Source: an uncultured delta proteobacterium (GTDB lineage: Bacteria > Myxococcota_A > Polyangia > Polyangiales > Polyangiaceae). Taken from it: a stretch of 64,000 nucleotides of DNA. A program made the position numbers and the translations under genes. Location: assembly GCA_963782055.1 (NCBI GenBank), contig CAWAIF010000003.1, forward strand, positions 5,632,001 through 5,696,000, given 5' to 3'. The notes below the pieces were generated by a model, which was not told where the DNA came from, did no database searches, and saw nothing but the letters and a program-made list of their open reading frames with translations. Shown here piece after piece: positions 50-55,051 of this stretch (position 1 is the stretch's first letter; each line of letters begins with the position of its first letter).

Positions 50-200
50 ATGCGCCCGGCGATCCGAACGGCGCCGGCGCCCCCCGTGGCCCGCGTACAC
101 CACGGCGAGCGACGAGAACCTCGTCATCGACACGCCTATCACGACCGCGACCGCCCTGAAGAACGACGCGTGCGACTTCTGAGATACTATCGAGAAGTAG
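50..200 (+). pseudogene. Internally deleted relic of a carboxylesterase paralogue
   Basis: 56-200 aligns to 4622-4767: GDPNGAGA/WPAYTTASDENLVIDTPITTATALKNDACDF*DTIEK* versus GDPNGDGAVAWPAYTAANDEDLVIDTPVSTATGLKKARCDFWDTIEK*. There is a 1-nt frameshift near 85 and TGG>TGA at 180-182. Confidence 0.9.
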
Positions 201-277: not shown

Positions 278-1123
278 CTAGTCCAGCACCTCCTCAGCAC
301 CAGCCAATAGCCGGTCCAATGCCGCCTCCTCACACTGATTGGAGATGGCCTCCAAATATGTACCAACCGGCGGGAAGACAAAGCGGCCAGCAACCTCAAC
401 CAACCGCGCAAGGCCCGCATCCCCGCACCTGACGCGCAGCGCCAGCGACGCACCAACACGGACACCGATACTAGCTTTCGGATTCTCCACGACATACCAC
501 AGGGCCTCGCGCAACACTCCAGGGGTACGATACGTACCGTCCGCGTCGCGCGCACCGATCACGCGCATGTCGCGAATCCACTGCGAGGCGGATCGTCCAC
601 CGCGTGCAAGACCATCGACAGGAGCGACATCAGACCAGGCCTGATACGTGTCGAAAGCAGCACCCAGTTCGTCTCCAAAGCGCCTGAGTTGGCCTAGCGA
701 CGTTGGCCCTGTAGGCTCCTTCTTCAGCAACCAGGCCCAGCGCTCCTGAGTCGGCGAATGCAATGGATACCACGCGAGACGGGCACCATCCTTGAAGTGC
801 ACTACTACGATGCCGGGTACCGATCGATGCACCGCCGCCAATGCCCCGAACGGTACGAAGCGCATGGCACCCAGCGTCTGGTACTGGAGTAGCCCGTCGA
901 CACCAATCACAACGGTCACTTGACGTTGCGCGCGCCGCGCAGACCACGCCAGAAGCAGTGCCACGTCCAGAAGCATCAATGTCGTCGCAAAGGCATCCCC
1001 TACGCGTTGTACAACGACAAATATGGCGGCAGCCAGAACCAGCATCAGCCAATCCCATCGATCGCACCCTGCGCTCCGGCCTGCGCCGACGAGGTGCGCT
1101 CCCCGCGCTCCCCTGCTTCTCAC
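278..1123 (-). CDS. Hypothetical membrane protein (cassette gene B): two N-terminal TM helices, a beta-rich middle and a helical C-terminal domain
   Basis: 281-aa ORF whose GTG start overlaps the upstream stop (the true start may be nearer 1044). Composition is more AT-rich than the flanks. The C-terminal domain is homologous to 54064-54400. Confidence 0.75.
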   Translation of the reverse strand: MRSRGARGAHLVGAGRSAGCDRWDWLMLVLAAAIFVVVQRVGDAFATTLMLLDVALLLAWSARRAQRQVTVVIGVDGLLQYQTLGAMRFVPFGALAAVHRSVPGIVVVHFKDGARLAWYPLHSPTQERWAWLLKKEPTGPTSLGQLRRFGDELGAAFDTYQAWSDVAPVDGLARGGRSASQWIRDMRVIGARDADGTYRTPGVLREALWYVVENPKASIGVRVGASLALRVRCGDAGLARLVEVAGRFVFPPVGTYLEAISNQCEEAALDRLLAGAEEVLD

Positions 1124-2152
1124 GATCGCGGTCCGATCGGACTGCCGGTGTCGTCCGGATTAGGATATTCGTGGAACGAGTGAGGGTTGCCGCCTCCGGT
1201 CCCCTCTGCCGGGTCGGGAAAGTAGAGGTCGACTCGCCGCAACCTGCCGCGTGGCCCTCCCACACCTCCTCCATCCGGATCATCCGGTGAGGGCATCTCC
1301 TCACTCGCATGGGGTCCGCCAACCCCGCCGCCACCTGAAGGGTCGTCAGGAGCCGGCATGGAGCCCGGTACGTGCGGATTCGCCTTGTTGTAGCCCACGG
1401 CCAGACCAATCCCAACTCCGGCTAAGGCGCCAACCGCGACGAGGTCGGGGTTCCCGGTAGCCAGGGTCGCCAGTGCCCCGAGCACCGCTCCCGCGAAGGC
1501 GTCGTGGATTGCCTCCTTCGGGATATCGGGCGAGCCATGCGGGAGAGATCCCTTGAGCGCGATCGCTAGGACGCGCGCCTCGTGTGCGAGGCCGGTGTCG
1601 TCCCCCCACCAGTTCGGGTGTGGGCCGCCCCGCCCGGGGCTGCCCCGGTTGGGGTCGTACCCGTGCCCGAGCAATCCGAGCCACTTCATCACCTCCCGCC
1701 GCTGCTTCTCCAGGTGCGCGTGCACGTCCGGCAGGTCGTGCGACGGGTGGCGGTAGCCGCCCCGTCGGGTCGAAGCCTGGCAGGTCGTGCAGGTGCCCGA
1801 ACATCTCTCCGATGATAGCAGCCGGATCGCCCTTGCCCAGCGTGCCGCCGGGGTTCGACGAGATGGGGATGTTCCCGCCGAAGTAGTGCTTGGAGATGTG
1901 GTCGATCACCTTGCCGATGTCGCTCGGGCCGGGCAGGCCTGACCCCGGCGTGTGGGTCCCGAAGTCCCCTCCGCCCAGCCCGAAGGGGCCTCCGAAGTGC
2001 TTCGCGATCTGGCCGATCAGGTCGCCGAGTGAATCGCCCCCCGTGCCGCCGATGACCTGCCCGCTCGGGAGCACGACGCCGGTGCCTTCCTCCGGCGGCC
2101 GCCAGTTGACGCGGCGAGGGCCGGTGTACTCCGGCTCCGGCACCTCACTCAT
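1120..2152 (-). pseudogene. Cassette gene A: Gly/Pro-rich protein (~343 aa reconstructed) split by a +1 frameshift, either real or a sequencing error
   Basis: ATG at 2152 (MSEVPEPEY). Removing one base from the CCCC run at 1760-1763 joins ...HDLPGFDPT to GGYRHPSHDLPDVHAHLEK... in the 1120..1725 frame. Confidence 0.75.
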
Positions 2153-2158
2153 CCCGTA
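1843..2158. repeat. 316-bp dispersed direct duplication, copy 1 (5' part of gene A)
   Basis: Colinear with 54495-54810. I counted 12 mismatches by eye and no indels. Confidence 0.95.
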
Positions 2159-2163
2159 CGCTC

Positions 2164-2583
2164 TCACCCGAACCTCGCGGGTGAGACGCGGTTCGCCGTC
2201 ACCAGCACGCGGAAGGTGACGTCCCAGGGGCCGCTTGTGCCCTGGGGGCTGAGGCGCCAGCGCACCCACGTGCCCAGCGGAACGGCGGGGTTGTTCACGA
2301 GGAGGGTCTTCGGCAGCGCCCCGCTGGACGTGTACGGGCCGGTGCCGGCCGCGATACCCGTCACCTGCATCATCGACTGAAACAGCGCCTCGTCCTTGCT
2401 CGGGGCGGTGTCCAGGTAGAAGTCGACGCTGCCTCCGCTCTGGTAGGAGACCTCGCGCACGTCGAGCCAGAGCACCAGATCCTGGAAGGAGCTGAAGCCC
2501 ATCCAGTCGCGCTCCGTCTGCTTGATGTCCGCGATGTTGCTGCCGCGAATGGTGATCCAATCCTGAAGGACGTAACCGTACAT
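2164..2583 (-). CDS. Hypothetical beta-rich protein (139 aa), paralogue 2
   Basis: AAGGAG RBS before the ATG at 2583 (MYGYVLQDWITIRG). Shares TIRG, FQD, TAPSKD, NP.VP.G.W.RW.L and WDVTFR motifs with the upstream ORF. Confidence 0.85.
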   Translation of the reverse strand: MYGYVLQDWITIRGSNIADIKQTERDWMGFSSFQDLVLWLDVREVSYQSGGSVDFYLDTAPSKDEALFQSMMQVTGIAAGTGPYTSSGALPKTLLVNNPAVPLGTWVRWRLSPQGTSGPWDVTFRVLVTANRVSPARFG

Positions 2584-2597
2584 GGTGGTCTCCTTGG

Positions 2598-2976
2598 TCA
2601 GCAGAGGGTGTTGCCGGTGGCGAGGATGCGGAAGGTGACGTCCCAGGTGGCCGCGGGCGCATTGAGCTTCCATCGCGTCCAGGCGCCGATGGGGACGCCG
2701 GGGTTGGCCACGAGCAGCACGTTGCCGGTGTTGAGGCCCACGCCGAAGGACGTGGCCACCTGCGGGCTCACCGCCGTGAGAAACATCGCCGGGTCCTTGC
2801 TCGGCGCCGTCTCGATGCTCATCATCGTCGGGGAGTTCGTCATCTCCGCGACGTCGACGAGGAACGTGATGTCCTGGAAAGGGCCCGTGAAGAGCCACTG
2901 CCCCACGTCCTGGATGACGCTCGTGTTCGCGGCGCCGCGGATGGTGAGGCTGGGGAGGCGGGCGCACGCCGTCCAC
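2598..2976 (-). pseudogene. Hypothetical beta-rich protein, paralogue 1, with a degenerate 5' end
   Basis: The frame encodes LTIRG...TAPSKD...WDVTFRILATGNTLC. There is no in-frame start at the position matching its paralogue's start, the GTG at 2976 is out of frame, and the hairpin repeat abuts at 2982. Confidence 0.65.
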
Positions 2977-2981
2977 AGCCG

Positions 2982-3164
2982 GTCACCAGCGCCCAGGACA
3001 TCCTCCCCGCCCGAGCGAGCGCGAGCGAGCGATGGGCCAGGGGAGGACCGCCCGCGCGCACGGCTCACGCGCAGCGCGCGCAGGCCGCGACCGCCGTCTC
3101 CATCGTGCACCTGGTCGCGGCCGAGCACGCGAGCATGAGCCGGAGCACGGGCGCGAGGAGGGGC
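2982..3164 (+). repeat. ~180-bp nested-hairpin dispersed repeat (REP/MITE-like), full copy
   Basis: Near-identical to 5480-5672. Internal inverted repeats: TCCTCCCC/GGGGAGGA, CGGCTCA/TGAGCCG and GGCCGCGACC/GGTCGCGGCC. Confidence 0.9.
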
Positions 3165-3180
3165 TACTATCCTTCCCGAC

Positions 3181-4767
3181 ATGCTCCGCTCGTCTCTCGC
3201 CCTCCCCTTCCTTCTCCTCGCCCTCGCCCTCCCCGCCTGCAGCTCCACCCCGGACGCGACGTCCCCCCCGCCCGACGGCCCCGTGGACATCACCACCGAC
3301 AAGGGCCCCGTCCACGGCTCCCTCGGCGACGGCGCGCGCGCCTTCCTCGGCATCCCCTACGCCGCGCCGCCCGTCGGGCCGCTCCGCTTCCTCCCGCCCA
3401 CCGAGGCGCCCGCGTGGACCACCCCGCGCGACGGCGCGCAGTTCGGGCCGAAGTGCCCGCAGCTCGGCGTCGACGGCAAGTCCCTCGCGCCGGAGACCAG
3501 CGAGGACTGCCTGTACCTCAACGTGTGGACGCCACGCGCCGACGTGAAGGACGCCCCCGTCTTCGTGTGGATCCACGGCGGCGGCTTCACCATCGGCTCC
3601 GGCAGCAATCCCCTCTACAACGGCGAGAGCCTCGCGCGGGAGACGGGCGCGATCATCGTCACCATCAACTACCGCCTCGGACCCCTCGGCTTCCTCTCGC
3701 ACACCGCCTTCGCCGCGGAGGAGGGCGTCGCCACCTCGCCGAGCCCCGGCCTGCTCGATCAGCAGGCGGCGCTGAAGTGGGTGCAGCGCAACATCGCCGC
3801 CTTCGGGGGCGATCCGCAGGACGTCACCGTCGCCGGAGAGTCGGCGGGCGGCATCAGCGTGTGCGCCCAGCTCGCCATGCCCGGGTCGAAGGGCCTCTTC
3901 CAGCGCGCGGTGATCGAGAGCGGCCCCTGCTGGGGCGCCTTCCCCTCCAAGGCGACCGCCGAGGATCAGGGCGACCGCCTCGCCGCCGCCGTCGGCTGCA
4001 CCGATCCCGGCACCGTCGCGGCCTGCCTGCGCGGCAGGTCGGTCGAGGAGATCCTCGGCGCGCTCCCCGGCAAGGCCGCGTACTTCGACGCCAAGGGCGA
4101 CTCCTACGGCCCCGTCGTCGACGGCACGGTGCTGCCCAAGGTGCCGATGGACGCGCTCGCCGCGGGAGAGGGCGCCGGCGTGCCGACCATCCTCGGCACC
4201 AACGTCAACGAGGGACAGCTCTTCGTCTTCCTCTACCAGACCTCCTTCGGCGCGCCCCCGACCGCCGCCGACGTGCGCGCGTCGCTCGGGAGCATCTTCG
4301 GGGCGAGCGTGGTCGACCAGATCGCGGCGCAGTATCCCGTCGACACCGATCCGCCGCAGGCCTTCACCGACATCATCACCGACGGCGCCTTCGCCTGCCC
4401 CACCCGCCGCGCCGCGCGCGCGCTCGCCGCCGGCGGGGTCCCCGCCTTCCTCTACCAGTTCACCTGGCCCTTCAAGGTGGGCGCCATCTCCGGCCCGGTG
4501 ACCTCCCACTCCTTCGAGGTGCCCTTCGTCTTCCGCAACGCGTACGTGGGCACCAAGCTCGACGACGCCGACGTGGTCGTCTCCGACGCGATGGACGGCT
4601 ACTGGTTCCGCTTCGCCCGGACCGGCGATCCGAACGGCGACGGCGCCGTCGCGTGGCCCGCCTACACCGCGGCCAACGACGAGGACCTGGTGATCGACAC
4701 CCCGGTGAGCACCGCCACCGGGCTGAAGAAGGCCAGGTGCGACTTCTGGGACACCATCGAGAAGTAG
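3181..4767 (+). CDS. Type-B carboxylesterase/lipase family lipoprotein
   Basis: Motifs FLGIPYAAPP, SEDCLYLNVW, WIHGGGF, NYRLG and GESAGG nucleophile elbow. Lipobox-like LPAC. Confidence 0.95.
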   Translation: MLRSSLALPFLLLALALPACSSTPDATSPPPDGPVDITTDKGPVHGSLGDGARAFLGIPYAAPPVGPLRFLPPTEAPAWTTPRDGAQFGPKCPQLGVDGKSLAPETSEDCLYLNVWTPRADVKDAPVFVWIHGGGFTIGSGSNPLYNGESLARETGAIIVTINYRLGPLGFLSHTAFAAEEGVATSPSPGLLDQQAALKWVQRNIAAFGGDPQDVTVAGESAGGISVCAQLAMPGSKGLFQRAVIESGPCWGAFPSKATAEDQGDRLAAAVGCTDPGTVAACLRGRSVEEILGALPGKAAYFDAKGDSYGPVVDGTVLPKVPMDALAAGEGAGVPTILGTNVNEGQLFVFLYQTSFGAPPTAADVRASLGSIFGASVVDQIAAQYPVDTDPPQAFTDIITDGAFACPTRRAARALAAGGVPAFLYQFTWPFKVGAISGPVTSHSFEVPFVFRNAYVGTKLDDADVVVSDAMDGYWFRFARTGDPNGDGAVAWPAYTAANDEDLVIDTPVSTATGLKKARCDFWDTIEK

Positions 4768-5308: not shown

Positions 5309-5479
5309 GAGGGGGGTCGAAGTCATCTCCCGGGCCCGGCCCCAACCCGAAGCTCCCTCGCGCGTTCCTGCCCATGGTCGGGCGGAGGCCATTCGCGGGG
5401 GAGGGCTTCGTCCCCTGCCGTTCGCCATCGGGGGGACCGGGCACGGGCACGGGAGCTGGCACATGATCGTCGGTAGCCC

Positions 5480-5672
5480 GTCACCAGCGCCCAGGACATC
5501 CTCCCCGCCCGAGCGAGCGAAGCGAGCGATGGGCCGGGGGAGGACCGCCCGCGCGCACGGCTCACGCGCAGCGCGCGCAGGCCGCGAGCCCGTCACCACC
5601 GTGCACCGCGGTCGCGGCCGAGCACGCGAGCATGAGCCGGAGCACGGGCGGAGGAGGGGCCCACCCCCCTCT
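5480..5672 (+). repeat. Hairpin repeat family, full copy between convergent genes
   Basis: GTCACCAGCGCCCAGGACATCCTCCCCGCCCGAGCGAGCG...GAGGAGGGGCCCACCCCCCT, matching 2982-3164. Confidence 0.9.
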
Positions 5673-37581: not shown

Positions 37582-37757
37582 GCACCCTCCTCCCCGTGTG
37601 GCGCGCGGAGCGCGACACCGAGGGGAGGACCGCCCGCGCGCACGGCTCACGCGCAGCGCGCGCAGGCCGCGACCGTCGTGACCATCGTGCACCCGCGTCG
37701 CGGCCGAGCACGCGAGCATGAGCCGGAGCACGGGCGCGAGGAGGGGCCCACCCCCTC
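37582..37757 (+). repeat. Hairpin repeat family copy with a variant first stem
   Basis: 37622-37757 is nearly identical to 3041-3164 and 5537-5670. It abuts the ATPase stop codon. Confidence 0.9.
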
Positions 37758-54063: not shown

Positions 54064-54804
54064 CTAGCCCTCCAGCTCCTCGAGCTGCGCGGCGATGGCG
54101 TCCTCGTCGCCGTCGATGGCCACGCGCAGTCCCTTCCGGAGCGCATCGGACGCGGACGTCTCGATGATGCCCGCGACGCGCGCCTTCCCTTCCGCGTCCA
54201 GCAGCGCCCTGAGCGCAACGACCGCGGCGACGCGCCGGGGCGCGGACGCCTCCGGACTCTCCAGCACCCGCCACGAGGTGTCCGGGGGTACGGCGGCGAC
54301 GCGGTAGTGAGCGTGCACCGGGCTTGCGAGCCCGGCAAGCCGGTGAACCCATCCGCGCAGGTTGGCGCCGTCCCGATCGAGAGCATGGACCGATTCGGTC
54401 GGCGCACGGCGAGCGTGTGCTTCGAGGCGGCGGAGTAGGTCACGAGATAGTGCATGGAGGCCCGGATCCCGGTCGAGGGCTTCCAAAAGCGTGATGCCGC
54501 CGGGGTTCGACGAGATGGGGATGTTCCCGCCGAAGTAGTGCTTGGAGATGTGGTCGATCACCTTGCCGATGTCGCTCGGGCCGGGCAGACCCGACCCCGG
54601 CGTGTGCGTCCCGAGGTCCCCTCCGCCCAGCCCGAAGGGTCCCCCGAAGTGCTTCGCGATCTGGCCAATCAGGTCGCCGAGTGAATCGCCCCCGGTGCCG
54701 CCGATGACCTGCCCGCTCGGGAGCACGACGCCGGTGCCTTCCTCCGGCGGCCGCCAGTCGACGCGGCGAGGACCGGTGTACTCCCGCTCCGGCACCTCGC
54801 TCAT
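54064..54804 (-). CDS. Chimeric ORF: gene A N-terminus (103 aa) fused in frame to a gene B-like C-terminal domain
   Basis: MSEVPEREY...ISSNPGG is shared with 1843-2152. L.R.G....W...YR...V.....W.V.E.P.AS...RV.A..ALR is shared with 278-620. Confidence 0.8.
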   Translation of the reverse strand: MSEVPEREYTGPRRVDWRPPEEGTGVVLPSGQVIGGTGGDSLGDLIGQIAKHFGGPFGLGGGDLGTHTPGSGLPGPSDIGKVIDHISKHYFGGNIPISSNPGGITLLEALDRDPGLHALSRDLLRRLEAHARRAPTESVHALDRDGANLRGWVHRLAGLASPVHAHYRVAAVPPDTSWRVLESPEASAPRRVAAVVALRALLDAEGKARVAGIIETSASDALRKGLRVAIDGDEDAIAAQLEELEG

Positions 54805-54810: not shown

Positions 54811-54861
54811 TGCGTGTTCCTGCGCAACCTCGAGGGGCGGGCCATCCGCGGGGGAGGGCCC

Positions 54862-55051
54862 GTTACCAGCGCCCCGAACATCCTCCCCGCCCGAGCGAGC
54901 GCGAGCGAGCGATGGGCCGGGGGAGGACGCGTGCGCGCAGGGCCCACGCGCAAGCTCGCGCGCGCGCCGGAGCCCGTGCACCCTGCACCCATCGACGGCG
55001 CGCGCGCGAGCGAGCATGGGCCCGAGCACACGCGAGGAGGGGCCCCCCCCT
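54862..55051 (+). repeat. Hairpin repeat family, diverged full copy
   Basis: GTTACCAGCGCCCCGAACATCCTCCCCGCCCGAGCGAGCGCGAGCGAGCGATGGGCCGGGGGAGGAC...GAGGAGGGGCCC. Confidence 0.88.

Follow-up and report, generated by a model that had tools for sequence, protein, structure and literature searches.

Polymorphic toxin systems combine a conserved trafficking part with an exchangeable effector part that carries a toxin domain; an adjacent partner changes with the effector and neutralizes its cognate toxin, and orphan cassettes, cassettes in tandem, and traces of recombination are common. Here we analyze a candidate system of this type from the Polyangiaceae, a family of abundant soil predators. It came to light as the gene pair A/B1 in a stretch of 64,000 nucleotides (the window, G000:C3:5632001-5696000) of an uncultured delta proteobacterium, whose genome (G000) has 7.6 Mb, 72% GC and a completeness of 97%. 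The same genome carries two further cassettes, c3 (A3/B3) and c4 (A4/B4), plus a hybrid of both genes at window positions 54804-54064. The two genes upstream of A, U1 and U2, code for a family of single-jelly-roll proteins that has no name and resembles phage cement proteins, and A ends in a degenerate proline-rich repeat, referred to below as the tag. With moderate confidence, we assign A/B as a single cassette to a polymorphic effector-immunity system that occurs in Myxococcota, above all in Polyangiaceae, and uses jelly rolls as a new trafficking module; in this system, A would be toxic, B would confer immunity, and the U proteins would bind the tag. At related loci, which carry the titles Polyangiaceae, Polyangiales, Myxococcales, or delta proteobacterium, an ordered operon of as many as nine U genes, one of which usually carries a LamG-type lectin fusion, precedes an exchangeable slot with a signal-less cargo, often tagged, and a partner that changes with the cargo. 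Additional cassettes pile up in tandem, each beginning with a whole or partial U1-type gene.

In the parts of the published accounts drawn on here, the umbrella toxin particles (Umb) of Streptomyces comprise ALF helical repeats, UmbB, and a trypsin-like UmbA and are found only in Actinobacteria (PMC11062931). As an analogue in the way of working, Umb resembles the system proposed here in that a polymorphic toxin carries degenerate tandem repeats, small partner proteins are encoded alongside, lectin domains serve in targeting, and an immunity gene is adjacent. However, the motifs found here are linear, C-terminal, and rich in Pro, Gly, and Asp, the accessory genes code for jelly rolls, variability is central or N-terminal, and binding to the repeats is only proposed; moreover, the related loci all carry Myxococcota-type titles, not Actinobacteria ones. 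No Umb-type Pfam or NCBIfam match was present among the searched proteins, and the comparison extends to the composition of the repeats, which differs. The Cdz system of Caulobacter, in the same partial sense, is based on CdzC and CdzD, glycine-zipper proteins of 84 to 86 amino acids (aa), with a type I secretion system alongside (PMC5380434). The likeness is that of a glycine-zipper-like hydrophobic effector adjacent to a transmembrane immunity candidate (B, with two to four predicted helices, a candidate only), but A has 350 to 400 aa with a constant N terminus and a tag, no ABC exporter was seen alongside, and the slot is also used by enzymes. SitA is described in the source excerpted here as a lipoprotein with a C-terminal nuclease that is transferred by outer-membrane exchange (PMC5562445). 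SitA/SitB/SitI also form a myxobacterial polymorphic toxin with an upstream accessory gene, a cognate immunity gene, and several cassettes per genome, but neither a lipobox nor a hydrophobic segment at the N terminus is present in A3, A4, or 17 motif-bearing cargoes, and variability lies elsewhere than at the C terminus. The genes upstream of A code for jelly rolls without a signal.

Regarding the jelly rolls, XepA and YomS form pentamers and XepA is cytotoxic, according to the part of the study cited (PMC6834076), so that phage-derived jelly rolls with pentameric assembly and cytotoxicity have a precedent. Like phage cement or decoration proteins (Bbp16-like), U is a single jelly-roll fold of 120 to 140 aa; unlike them, it is found in ordered paralogue arrays outside recognizable prophages and not in a phage head module. 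Some tested defining features of Cdz and SitA are absent, and the locus is outside the known range of Umb. No account of the arrangement of U array, tag, and cassette was found in open-access texts (supplements excluded), the sections of a review of myxobacterial genomics covered here (PMC8538405) contain no description of the system, and in the open-access literature "Polyangiaceae" was met together with "polymorphic toxin" only in a general review. The system is a real and apparently undescribed variant of polymorphic toxin systems, represented in the window by two cassettes, both damaged.

Four copies of the N-terminal part of A were identified in this genome, together with one tag-only fragment (C3:1179345-1179602). 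Each whole copy follows the same plan, with a constant N terminus, a hydrophobic glycine-rich hairpin unrelated between copies, C-terminal P-N/D-P-E/D-(G)n-P-R repeats, and then the membrane protein B. Modular exchange is evident in the intact copies A3 (394 aa; C3:6003168-6004352) and A4 (354 aa; C3:6007497-6008561), which have 90% identity up to residue 182, 26% through the middle (25% after shuffling), and 69% in the C-terminal repeats; the middle of the window A shows little or no identity above the shuffled baseline to those of the other copies. The initial annotation, made from the letters of the window, had proposed a constant 5' module joined to a variable 3' module. The constant/variable design is supported, but the constant part extends over about 170 to 190 codons, and the variability anticipated for the A C termini is located in the middle, as the C terminus is conserved as well. 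The repeat of the first 103 codons on which that proposal was based was recovered at 54496-54804 with 9 synonymous and 3 nonsynonymous differences (12 in all), and the constant part is under purifying selection, as had been suspected: the ratio of nonsynonymous to synonymous change (pN/pS) over codons 1 to 103 is 0.11 between the window copy and the hybrid (binomial p=5e-4) and 0.11 to 0.28 in 6/6 pairwise comparisons of the four genome copies. The hydrophobic Gly/Ala-rich hairpin noticed in the window A is seen by hydropathy in the middle of each copy, with Pfam Gly-zipper models matching A3 only, below threshold. The 3' part is also AT-richer, as first reported, with GC contents at third codon positions (GC3) of 0.90 for the A N-terminal part, 0.63 for the C-terminal repeats, and 0.64 for B, and of 0.49 to 0.63 for the middles of A4 and A3; the host median is 0.96 (4118 called genes), a value biased upward because the gene caller was trained on high-GC3 genes.

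The A-type hairpin beside B was found in G000 (three cassettes), L075, and G031. The metagenome contig L075 carries U1, the A homologue P0121, and a B homologue in that order, and G031 has an A-like hairpin-plus-tag gene with B behind it, at a distance of about 3 kb from an array of six U genes. Between P0121 and P0141, identity is 96% over 191 residues, then drops to 21% in the hairpin, against a baseline of 24%, and is 46% in the tag; a second, independent metagenomic lineage switches from constant to variable at the same point as A3/A4. P0139 combines an A-type N terminus with a helical middle and the tag, and its gene is probably co-located with a U1 homologue, whose contig is equal in length to its own. 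Word-indexed searches with A4 gave only the copies of this genome among a maximum of 8000 candidates and a match in 1/201 family genomes, and the ESM Atlas had no usable match for A.

The window had been described as containing gene A at 2152-1120 and the two-gene system twice, but A is not a single open reading frame there and neither copy is intact. Window A, as assembled, is split by an apparent frameshift, with four G at 1763-1760 where two intact paralogues of the genome have three, and its upstream gene is 5' truncated, while the other copy (54804-54064) is a single open reading frame of 246 codons that has lost hairpin, tag, and the membrane part of B. A sequence contig without the extra G at 1760-1763 agrees with copy c3 at 6/6 diagnostic letters, and the best read run held at most 9% of the words; two RNA-library contigs (probably one data set, depth <3) span 1450-1662 with four substitutions and two gaps and do not amount to a demonstration of expression. 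The B-like part of the second copy is indeed distant from the window B (35% identity over 74 aa), but it is fused to A and is closer to B3 and B4 (57 to 60%). The hybrid is a deletion relic of another cassette, and we infer that both window copies are decayed or silent.

The genes upstream of A differ in completeness, from whole U1 and U2 genes at c4 to a repeat-truncated U2 in the window, a U1 3' fragment alone at c3, and none at the hybrid. The complete cassette set of this genome is located at C3:6006219-6009566. Cassettes c3 and c4 form a tandem, and between them are a 671-bp duplicate (94%) of a host gene 3' end, a repeat, and a DUF559 gene; c4 has a second, decayed U1 3' end ahead of A. 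At two cassettes, the 3' end of the adjoining host gene is present a second time (window 56-200, esterase, 82%; G000:C3:6005452-6006122, dehydrogenase-like, 94%), as expected from integration of DNA from a relative. Tandem copies, U1 fragments, and flank duplicates would be the marks of cassettes added from relatives by recombination. The palindromic repeat, of about 200 bp, is present at window positions 2961-3164, 5475-5662, 37621-37749, and 54846-55045 and in about 52 clusters genome-wide. It bounds A/B cassettes, truncates U2, and is often near DUF559 endonuclease genes (about 19 whole or partial in the genome), and it may mobilize the cassettes. The window had no match in Rfam. The features of the two window copies are compiled in Table 1.

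Table 1. Positions of cassette features in the window
Feature	Position	Strand	Evidence
Second 3' end of neighboring carboxylesterase gene (82% identity with window 4622-4767), carried along by cassette	56..200	+	
B1 (281 aa), with transmembrane hairpin at N terminus, PH-fold domain, and helical domain at C terminus; candidate partner or immunity protein	278..1123	-	ORF (open reading frame), AlphaFold
Gene A C-terminal tag: four degenerate P-x-P-D/E-D-(G)n-P-R/H repeats	1120..1365	-	Alignments, profile search
Gene A variable middle with hydrophobic Gly/Ala-rich hairpin (about 1395-1500); candidate membrane-active effector	1366..1610	-	Hydropathy
Gene A constant N-terminal part; apparent +1 frameshift in G run 1763-1760; starts with tag-like unit PEPEYTGPR	1611..2152	-	Paralogue comparison
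U1, 139 aa, single jelly roll; subfamily most often last in array, adjoining cargo	2164..2583	-	Model, subfamily order
U2 remnant, jelly-roll paralogue; first codons (about nine) replaced by palindromic-repeat end	2598..2948	-	87% identical to intact U2 (G000:C3:6009192-6009566)
REP-like (repetitive extragenic palindromic) repeat at cassette boundary	2961..3164	.	About 52 clusters in genome
A::B deletion hybrid	54064..54804	-	A codons 1-103 (54804-54496) in frame with B C-terminal domain (54495-54064)
REP-like palindromic repeat immediately upstream of hybrid, where U1 would be	54846..55045	.	DNA fold z=-3.3; 0/200 shuffles equally stable

Gene B is coupled to A by the GTGA overlap noted from the start (B GTG, 1123-1121; A stop, 1122-1120). 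The AlphaFold model of B1 (mean pLDDT, 64, the predicted local distance score) consists of a membrane hairpin, a PH-fold domain, and a helical tail, and its fold comparison pointed to PH/FERM-F3 folds (Z up to 10.5). B reached the cutoff of no family in the libraries, and Foldseek gave no match in the PDB at E<=0.001, with the helical C-terminal domain not used as a separate query. The N-terminal parts of B1, B3, and B4 have identities at shuffle level, so that the variable cargo is coupled to a variable partner. B3 and B4 are 59% identical over the last 110 residues and 84% identical at the DNA level over the last 190 bases, a 3' DNA anchor that is not common to B1. Stand-alone, host-like copies of B (GC3, 0.93 to 0.97) are also present in this genome. 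The wider family, a membrane hairpin plus PH fold, often doubled, plus helical tail, is multicopy and unnamed (examples are L137-L164 and G000:C3:858644, 4136980, and 4167040).

The search for homologues of U1 gave 106 matches (U1 included) among 128 candidates, 0 of them with a Pfam domain. The U1 model is a single jelly roll (pLDDT, 87) whose nearest fold is the BPP-1 cement protein (3j4u_H; Z 9.2, root mean square deviation 2.7, 109 residues aligned), followed by the Carin1 capsid protein (8cjz_B, Z 8.1), XepA/YomS (Z 7.7 and 7.5), and Ena2A (Z 7.3); only 2/48,161 chains counted had a Z >= 8, and sequence identity to the fold matches did not exceed 15%. With U1, Foldseek gave no PDB match at E<=0.001, and the U profile gave only two chance-level matches among PDB sequences. 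By ESM features, U is nearest to phage hypothetical clusters (0.95 to 0.97), one with Bbp16 in 21% of its members, and phrog_427 of PHROGs, whose function is unnamed, was weakly matched by 4/106 U members. U relatives were found neither in viral contigs nor in 50,697 phage records; the arrays are flanked by bacterial host genes, and no phage structural genes were seen when the adjacent gene calls were read by eye.

The cassettes are linked to ordered jelly-roll arrays. U is present in 24/383 family genomes and 13/401 phylum genomes (this genome counted), usually as an array of three to nine genes. According to a tree built with 137 domains of 31 of the loci, the order of the subfamilies is preserved between arrays, and the U1 type is the one found most frequently at the end. 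As a rule, a domain of about 230 aa is attached to one member or follows it; a Laminin_G_3 (LamG) match was obtained in 3/6 of the domains tested, and the LamG alignment found nothing among PDB sequences. An N-terminal hydrophobic segment reached threshold in 0/107 U proteins, 0/17 motif-bearing cargoes, and 10/19 partners. Hcp of the type VI secretion system was not found in this genome, 97% complete as it is, apart from one sub-threshold phage-tube match. The prediction of a complex of two U1, two U2, and the A tag scored 0.00 twice with the fold of the partner uncertain and carries no weight either way. In one genome (G044), a U domain at a contig end is in frame with a Cys-rich domain of 350 aa (L206:7647-8862), possibly a carrier-cargo fusion.

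Many of the cargoes have the tag in common. A profile built from seven C termini retrieved 26 proteins among 1.84 billion, four of these being source sequences, which ranked at the top; the N termini of the matches vary, and many have Gly-rich hairpins. As a regular expression, P[ND]P[ED]x, counted within 3.5 kb downstream of the terminal U in regions with at least 2.5 kb of sequence, the motif was present in 14/28 downstream regions (12/26 without this genome), 1/16 upstream regions, and 30/5696 called host genes, and the enrichment without this genome has a Fisher p=0.014, with some regions coming from one locus and L085/L097 being near-identical. A partly independent check was the scan of the family genomes with the tag profile, scoring 12 candidates per genome: 5/383 matched, all of them U-positive, including two (G575 and G692) outside the main sources of the profile. 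In both, a small two-helix membrane gene, without a match to the B profile, adjoins the tag. A tag-like unit also opens the N terminus of A (window 2152-2117), P0121, P0141, and the L082 cargo, and the cargo may thus have a tag at each end.

Behind the U arrays, the slot is occupied by variable cargoes (lysozymes, peptidases, helical domains, and A-like hairpins), each with its own lipoprotein-like or membrane partner, and most occupants have no Pfam family match. In G182, three cargoes have unrelated N termini, two without a family and one a phage-type lysozyme (PF00959, E 5e-30), while two of their C termini share 94% over 255 residues and the third 86 to 91% over the last 57; a different small, partly lipoprotein-like gene precedes each cargo, and a U1-type gene is repeated ahead of the second cassette. 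L064, which is one stretch with G575:C16 and was counted once, has a repeated cassette unit of the same kind. Further occupants are a lysozyme in L103, an S8 peptidase in L177, a cargo without family match that has an HExxH-like motif (read by eye), and, in G161 and L099, lanthipeptide and radical-SAM peptide maturases. Cargo and partner covary, with 48% and 58% identity between L070 and L109, and likewise in the pairs of G025. The latter genome has four related proteins of 380 to 410 aa without a family, each with a lipoprotein-like neighbor, around two near-identical seven-gene U arrays (L048:10194-22045, L046:12289-14126); they are another cargo class, tagless. Directly behind U genes we also observed a LanL-like lanthipeptide synthetase (L054:14806-17466) and a pair formed by an HExxH hydroxylase and a cyclophane-type radical SAM protein (L099:1587-2926).

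Taken as a whole, these loci have a conserved part and an exchangeable part, an adjacent partner that changes with the effector (B N-terminal parts, cargo-partner covariation), and orphan or tandem cassettes with signs of recombination (c3/c4, U1 fragments, the hybrid, the tag-only fragment, G182, and L064), and the slot contains a recognized toxin domain, lysozyme, at related loci, with A3 having only the sub-threshold Gly-zipper matches. The effector/immunity-like interpretation of the initial annotation is thereby supported by the four genome copies and the related loci, although the unit is larger than the two genes it comprised: the membrane partner B is downstream of A, but the defining element is the upstream jelly-roll array together with the C-terminal tag. 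In the mechanism that we propose, exchange of the slot would proceed by homologous recombination between constant flanks, namely, the U1 3' end and the A N terminus on the left and the tag and the B 3' end on the right. The U proteins would form a heteromeric carrier that binds the repeats, with the tag as the loading handle; the lectin domain may recognize glycans of the target surface, so that the carrier would bring the cargo to the envelope of competitor or prey bacteria. There, the A hairpin would permeabilize the inner membrane unless bound by the cognate B, a putative inner-membrane immunity protein. Release may occur by lysis or vesicles. A more specific version, which we put forward tentatively and hold to be clearly less probable than the cassette reading itself, is that about five cement-like jelly-roll subunits, one of them lectin-bearing, form a heteromeric ring or shell that loads any tagged cargo, be it a pore-forming hairpin, a lysozyme, or a peptidase, and takes it to rival or prey bacteria without a classical secretion system. 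It is likewise a speculative, though not far-fetched, proposal that such a particle would be a myxobacterial counterpart of the umbrella toxins, derived from a domesticated capsid protein and equipped with a portable loading tag.

Several observations weigh against the cassette reading. A matched no family library at the cutoff, in agreement with the early remark that no named family was recognized, and no exporter was seen among the called genes beside arrays or cassettes. This genome has only U2 and U1, versus the usual five or more subfamilies. The motif is missing from 14/28 downstream regions, its regular expression was chosen after the data had been seen, the p-values overstate because several genomes and contigs are kin or duplicates, and the tag matches of G575 and G692 are on contigs other than those of their U arrays. 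Some slot occupants are not obvious toxins (an FAD oxidase, a DMFA2-like protein, and a beta-lactamase-like protein). Finally, B relatives are found in 111/201 family genomes, often in multiple copies and mostly without A, with the tag motif within 1.5 kb of 0/28 other top B loci. B is therefore a recruited family member and not a dedicated one.

Some of these points fit other explanations. The U array could be a surface appendage or coat, a fiber or lattice that is possibly glycosylated and displays variable enzymes and adhesins, with A/B as a self-recognition or adhesion pair that does not kill. We regard this as unlikely, although it accounts for the lectin fusion in the arrays, for the TPR-type family-2 glycosyltransferases that flank many of them, and for the several cargoes that are hydrolases or oxidases of use in predation; the likeness of U to the Ena2A subunits of endospore appendages (Z 7.3) falls within background, and changing one-to-one partners, tandem orphan cassettes, and peptidoglycan hydrolases with lipoprotein-like neighbors suit immunity better than display. 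It is quite improbable that the U genes represent phage genes for capsid decoration, domesticated or in decay, at a hot spot of insertion, with A and B as unrelated passengers joined by shuffling through repeats and insertion sequence (IS) elements. The phage clusters nearest in ESM features, the cement protein as best U1 fold match, the position of the loci among IS elements, DUF559 genes, and REP-like repeats, and the wide distribution of B on its own would all follow from it, but neither viral contigs nor phage records contain a U relative, phage structural genes were not seen beside the arrays in the calls read by eye, and the ordered subfamilies, the tag enrichment, and the U1-A-B order, which recurs in three independent sources, are hard to reconcile with passengers.

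The short proteins P0119 and P0140, which are almost entirely repeats, and the maturases behind U genes in G161 and L099 recall ribosomally made modified peptides, where the repeats would be cores or modification sites, A a multicore precursor, and B a membrane exporter or receptor. We give this very little credence, as both short proteins may be fragments, their contigs being only about 1 kb long, no maturase was seen next to A/B in this genome, in L075, or in G031, and the repeats are joined to lysozyme and other folded domains. The least probable explanation, in our estimate, is an intracellular toxin-antitoxin or anti-phage suicide module in which the U arrays would be decoys or sensors of phage capsids. 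The absence of an export signal in A and U, the capsid-like fold of U, and the toxin-antitoxin-like genes that often adjoin the loci (named from sequence motifs) agree with it, but PADLOC gave 0 matches for 10 proteins, and lysozyme cargoes with lipoprotein-like partners imply action outside the cytoplasm. In any case, two unnamed elements, the protein family U and the repeat tag, are defined by the locus, together with a slot for exchangeable payloads, and a single genome supplies intact cognate and noncognate A/B pairs. If U carries tagged cargo, this would be a new protein-delivery platform, in which a phage-type fold serves bacterial conflict, and could supply new antibacterial domains.

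Other genes are repeatedly located around the arrays. TPR-type family-2 glycosyltransferases, one of them with a sulfotransferase fusion, flank those of L070, L127, L175, L176, L178, L180, and L185, in distant families as well; U or its cargo may be glycosylated. Sigma-54 activators and response-regulator-like genes adjoin several arrays (e.g., L052:17474-18451 and L201:13695-14795), while a sigma-54 promoter motif, considered as a general feature of the arrays, was rejected, as it is upstream of only 1/20. A basic helical protein of 200 to 225 aa without a family match is coded near several U loci (L042:10579-11256, L044:4200-4877, L075:3012-3644, and upstream in L064).

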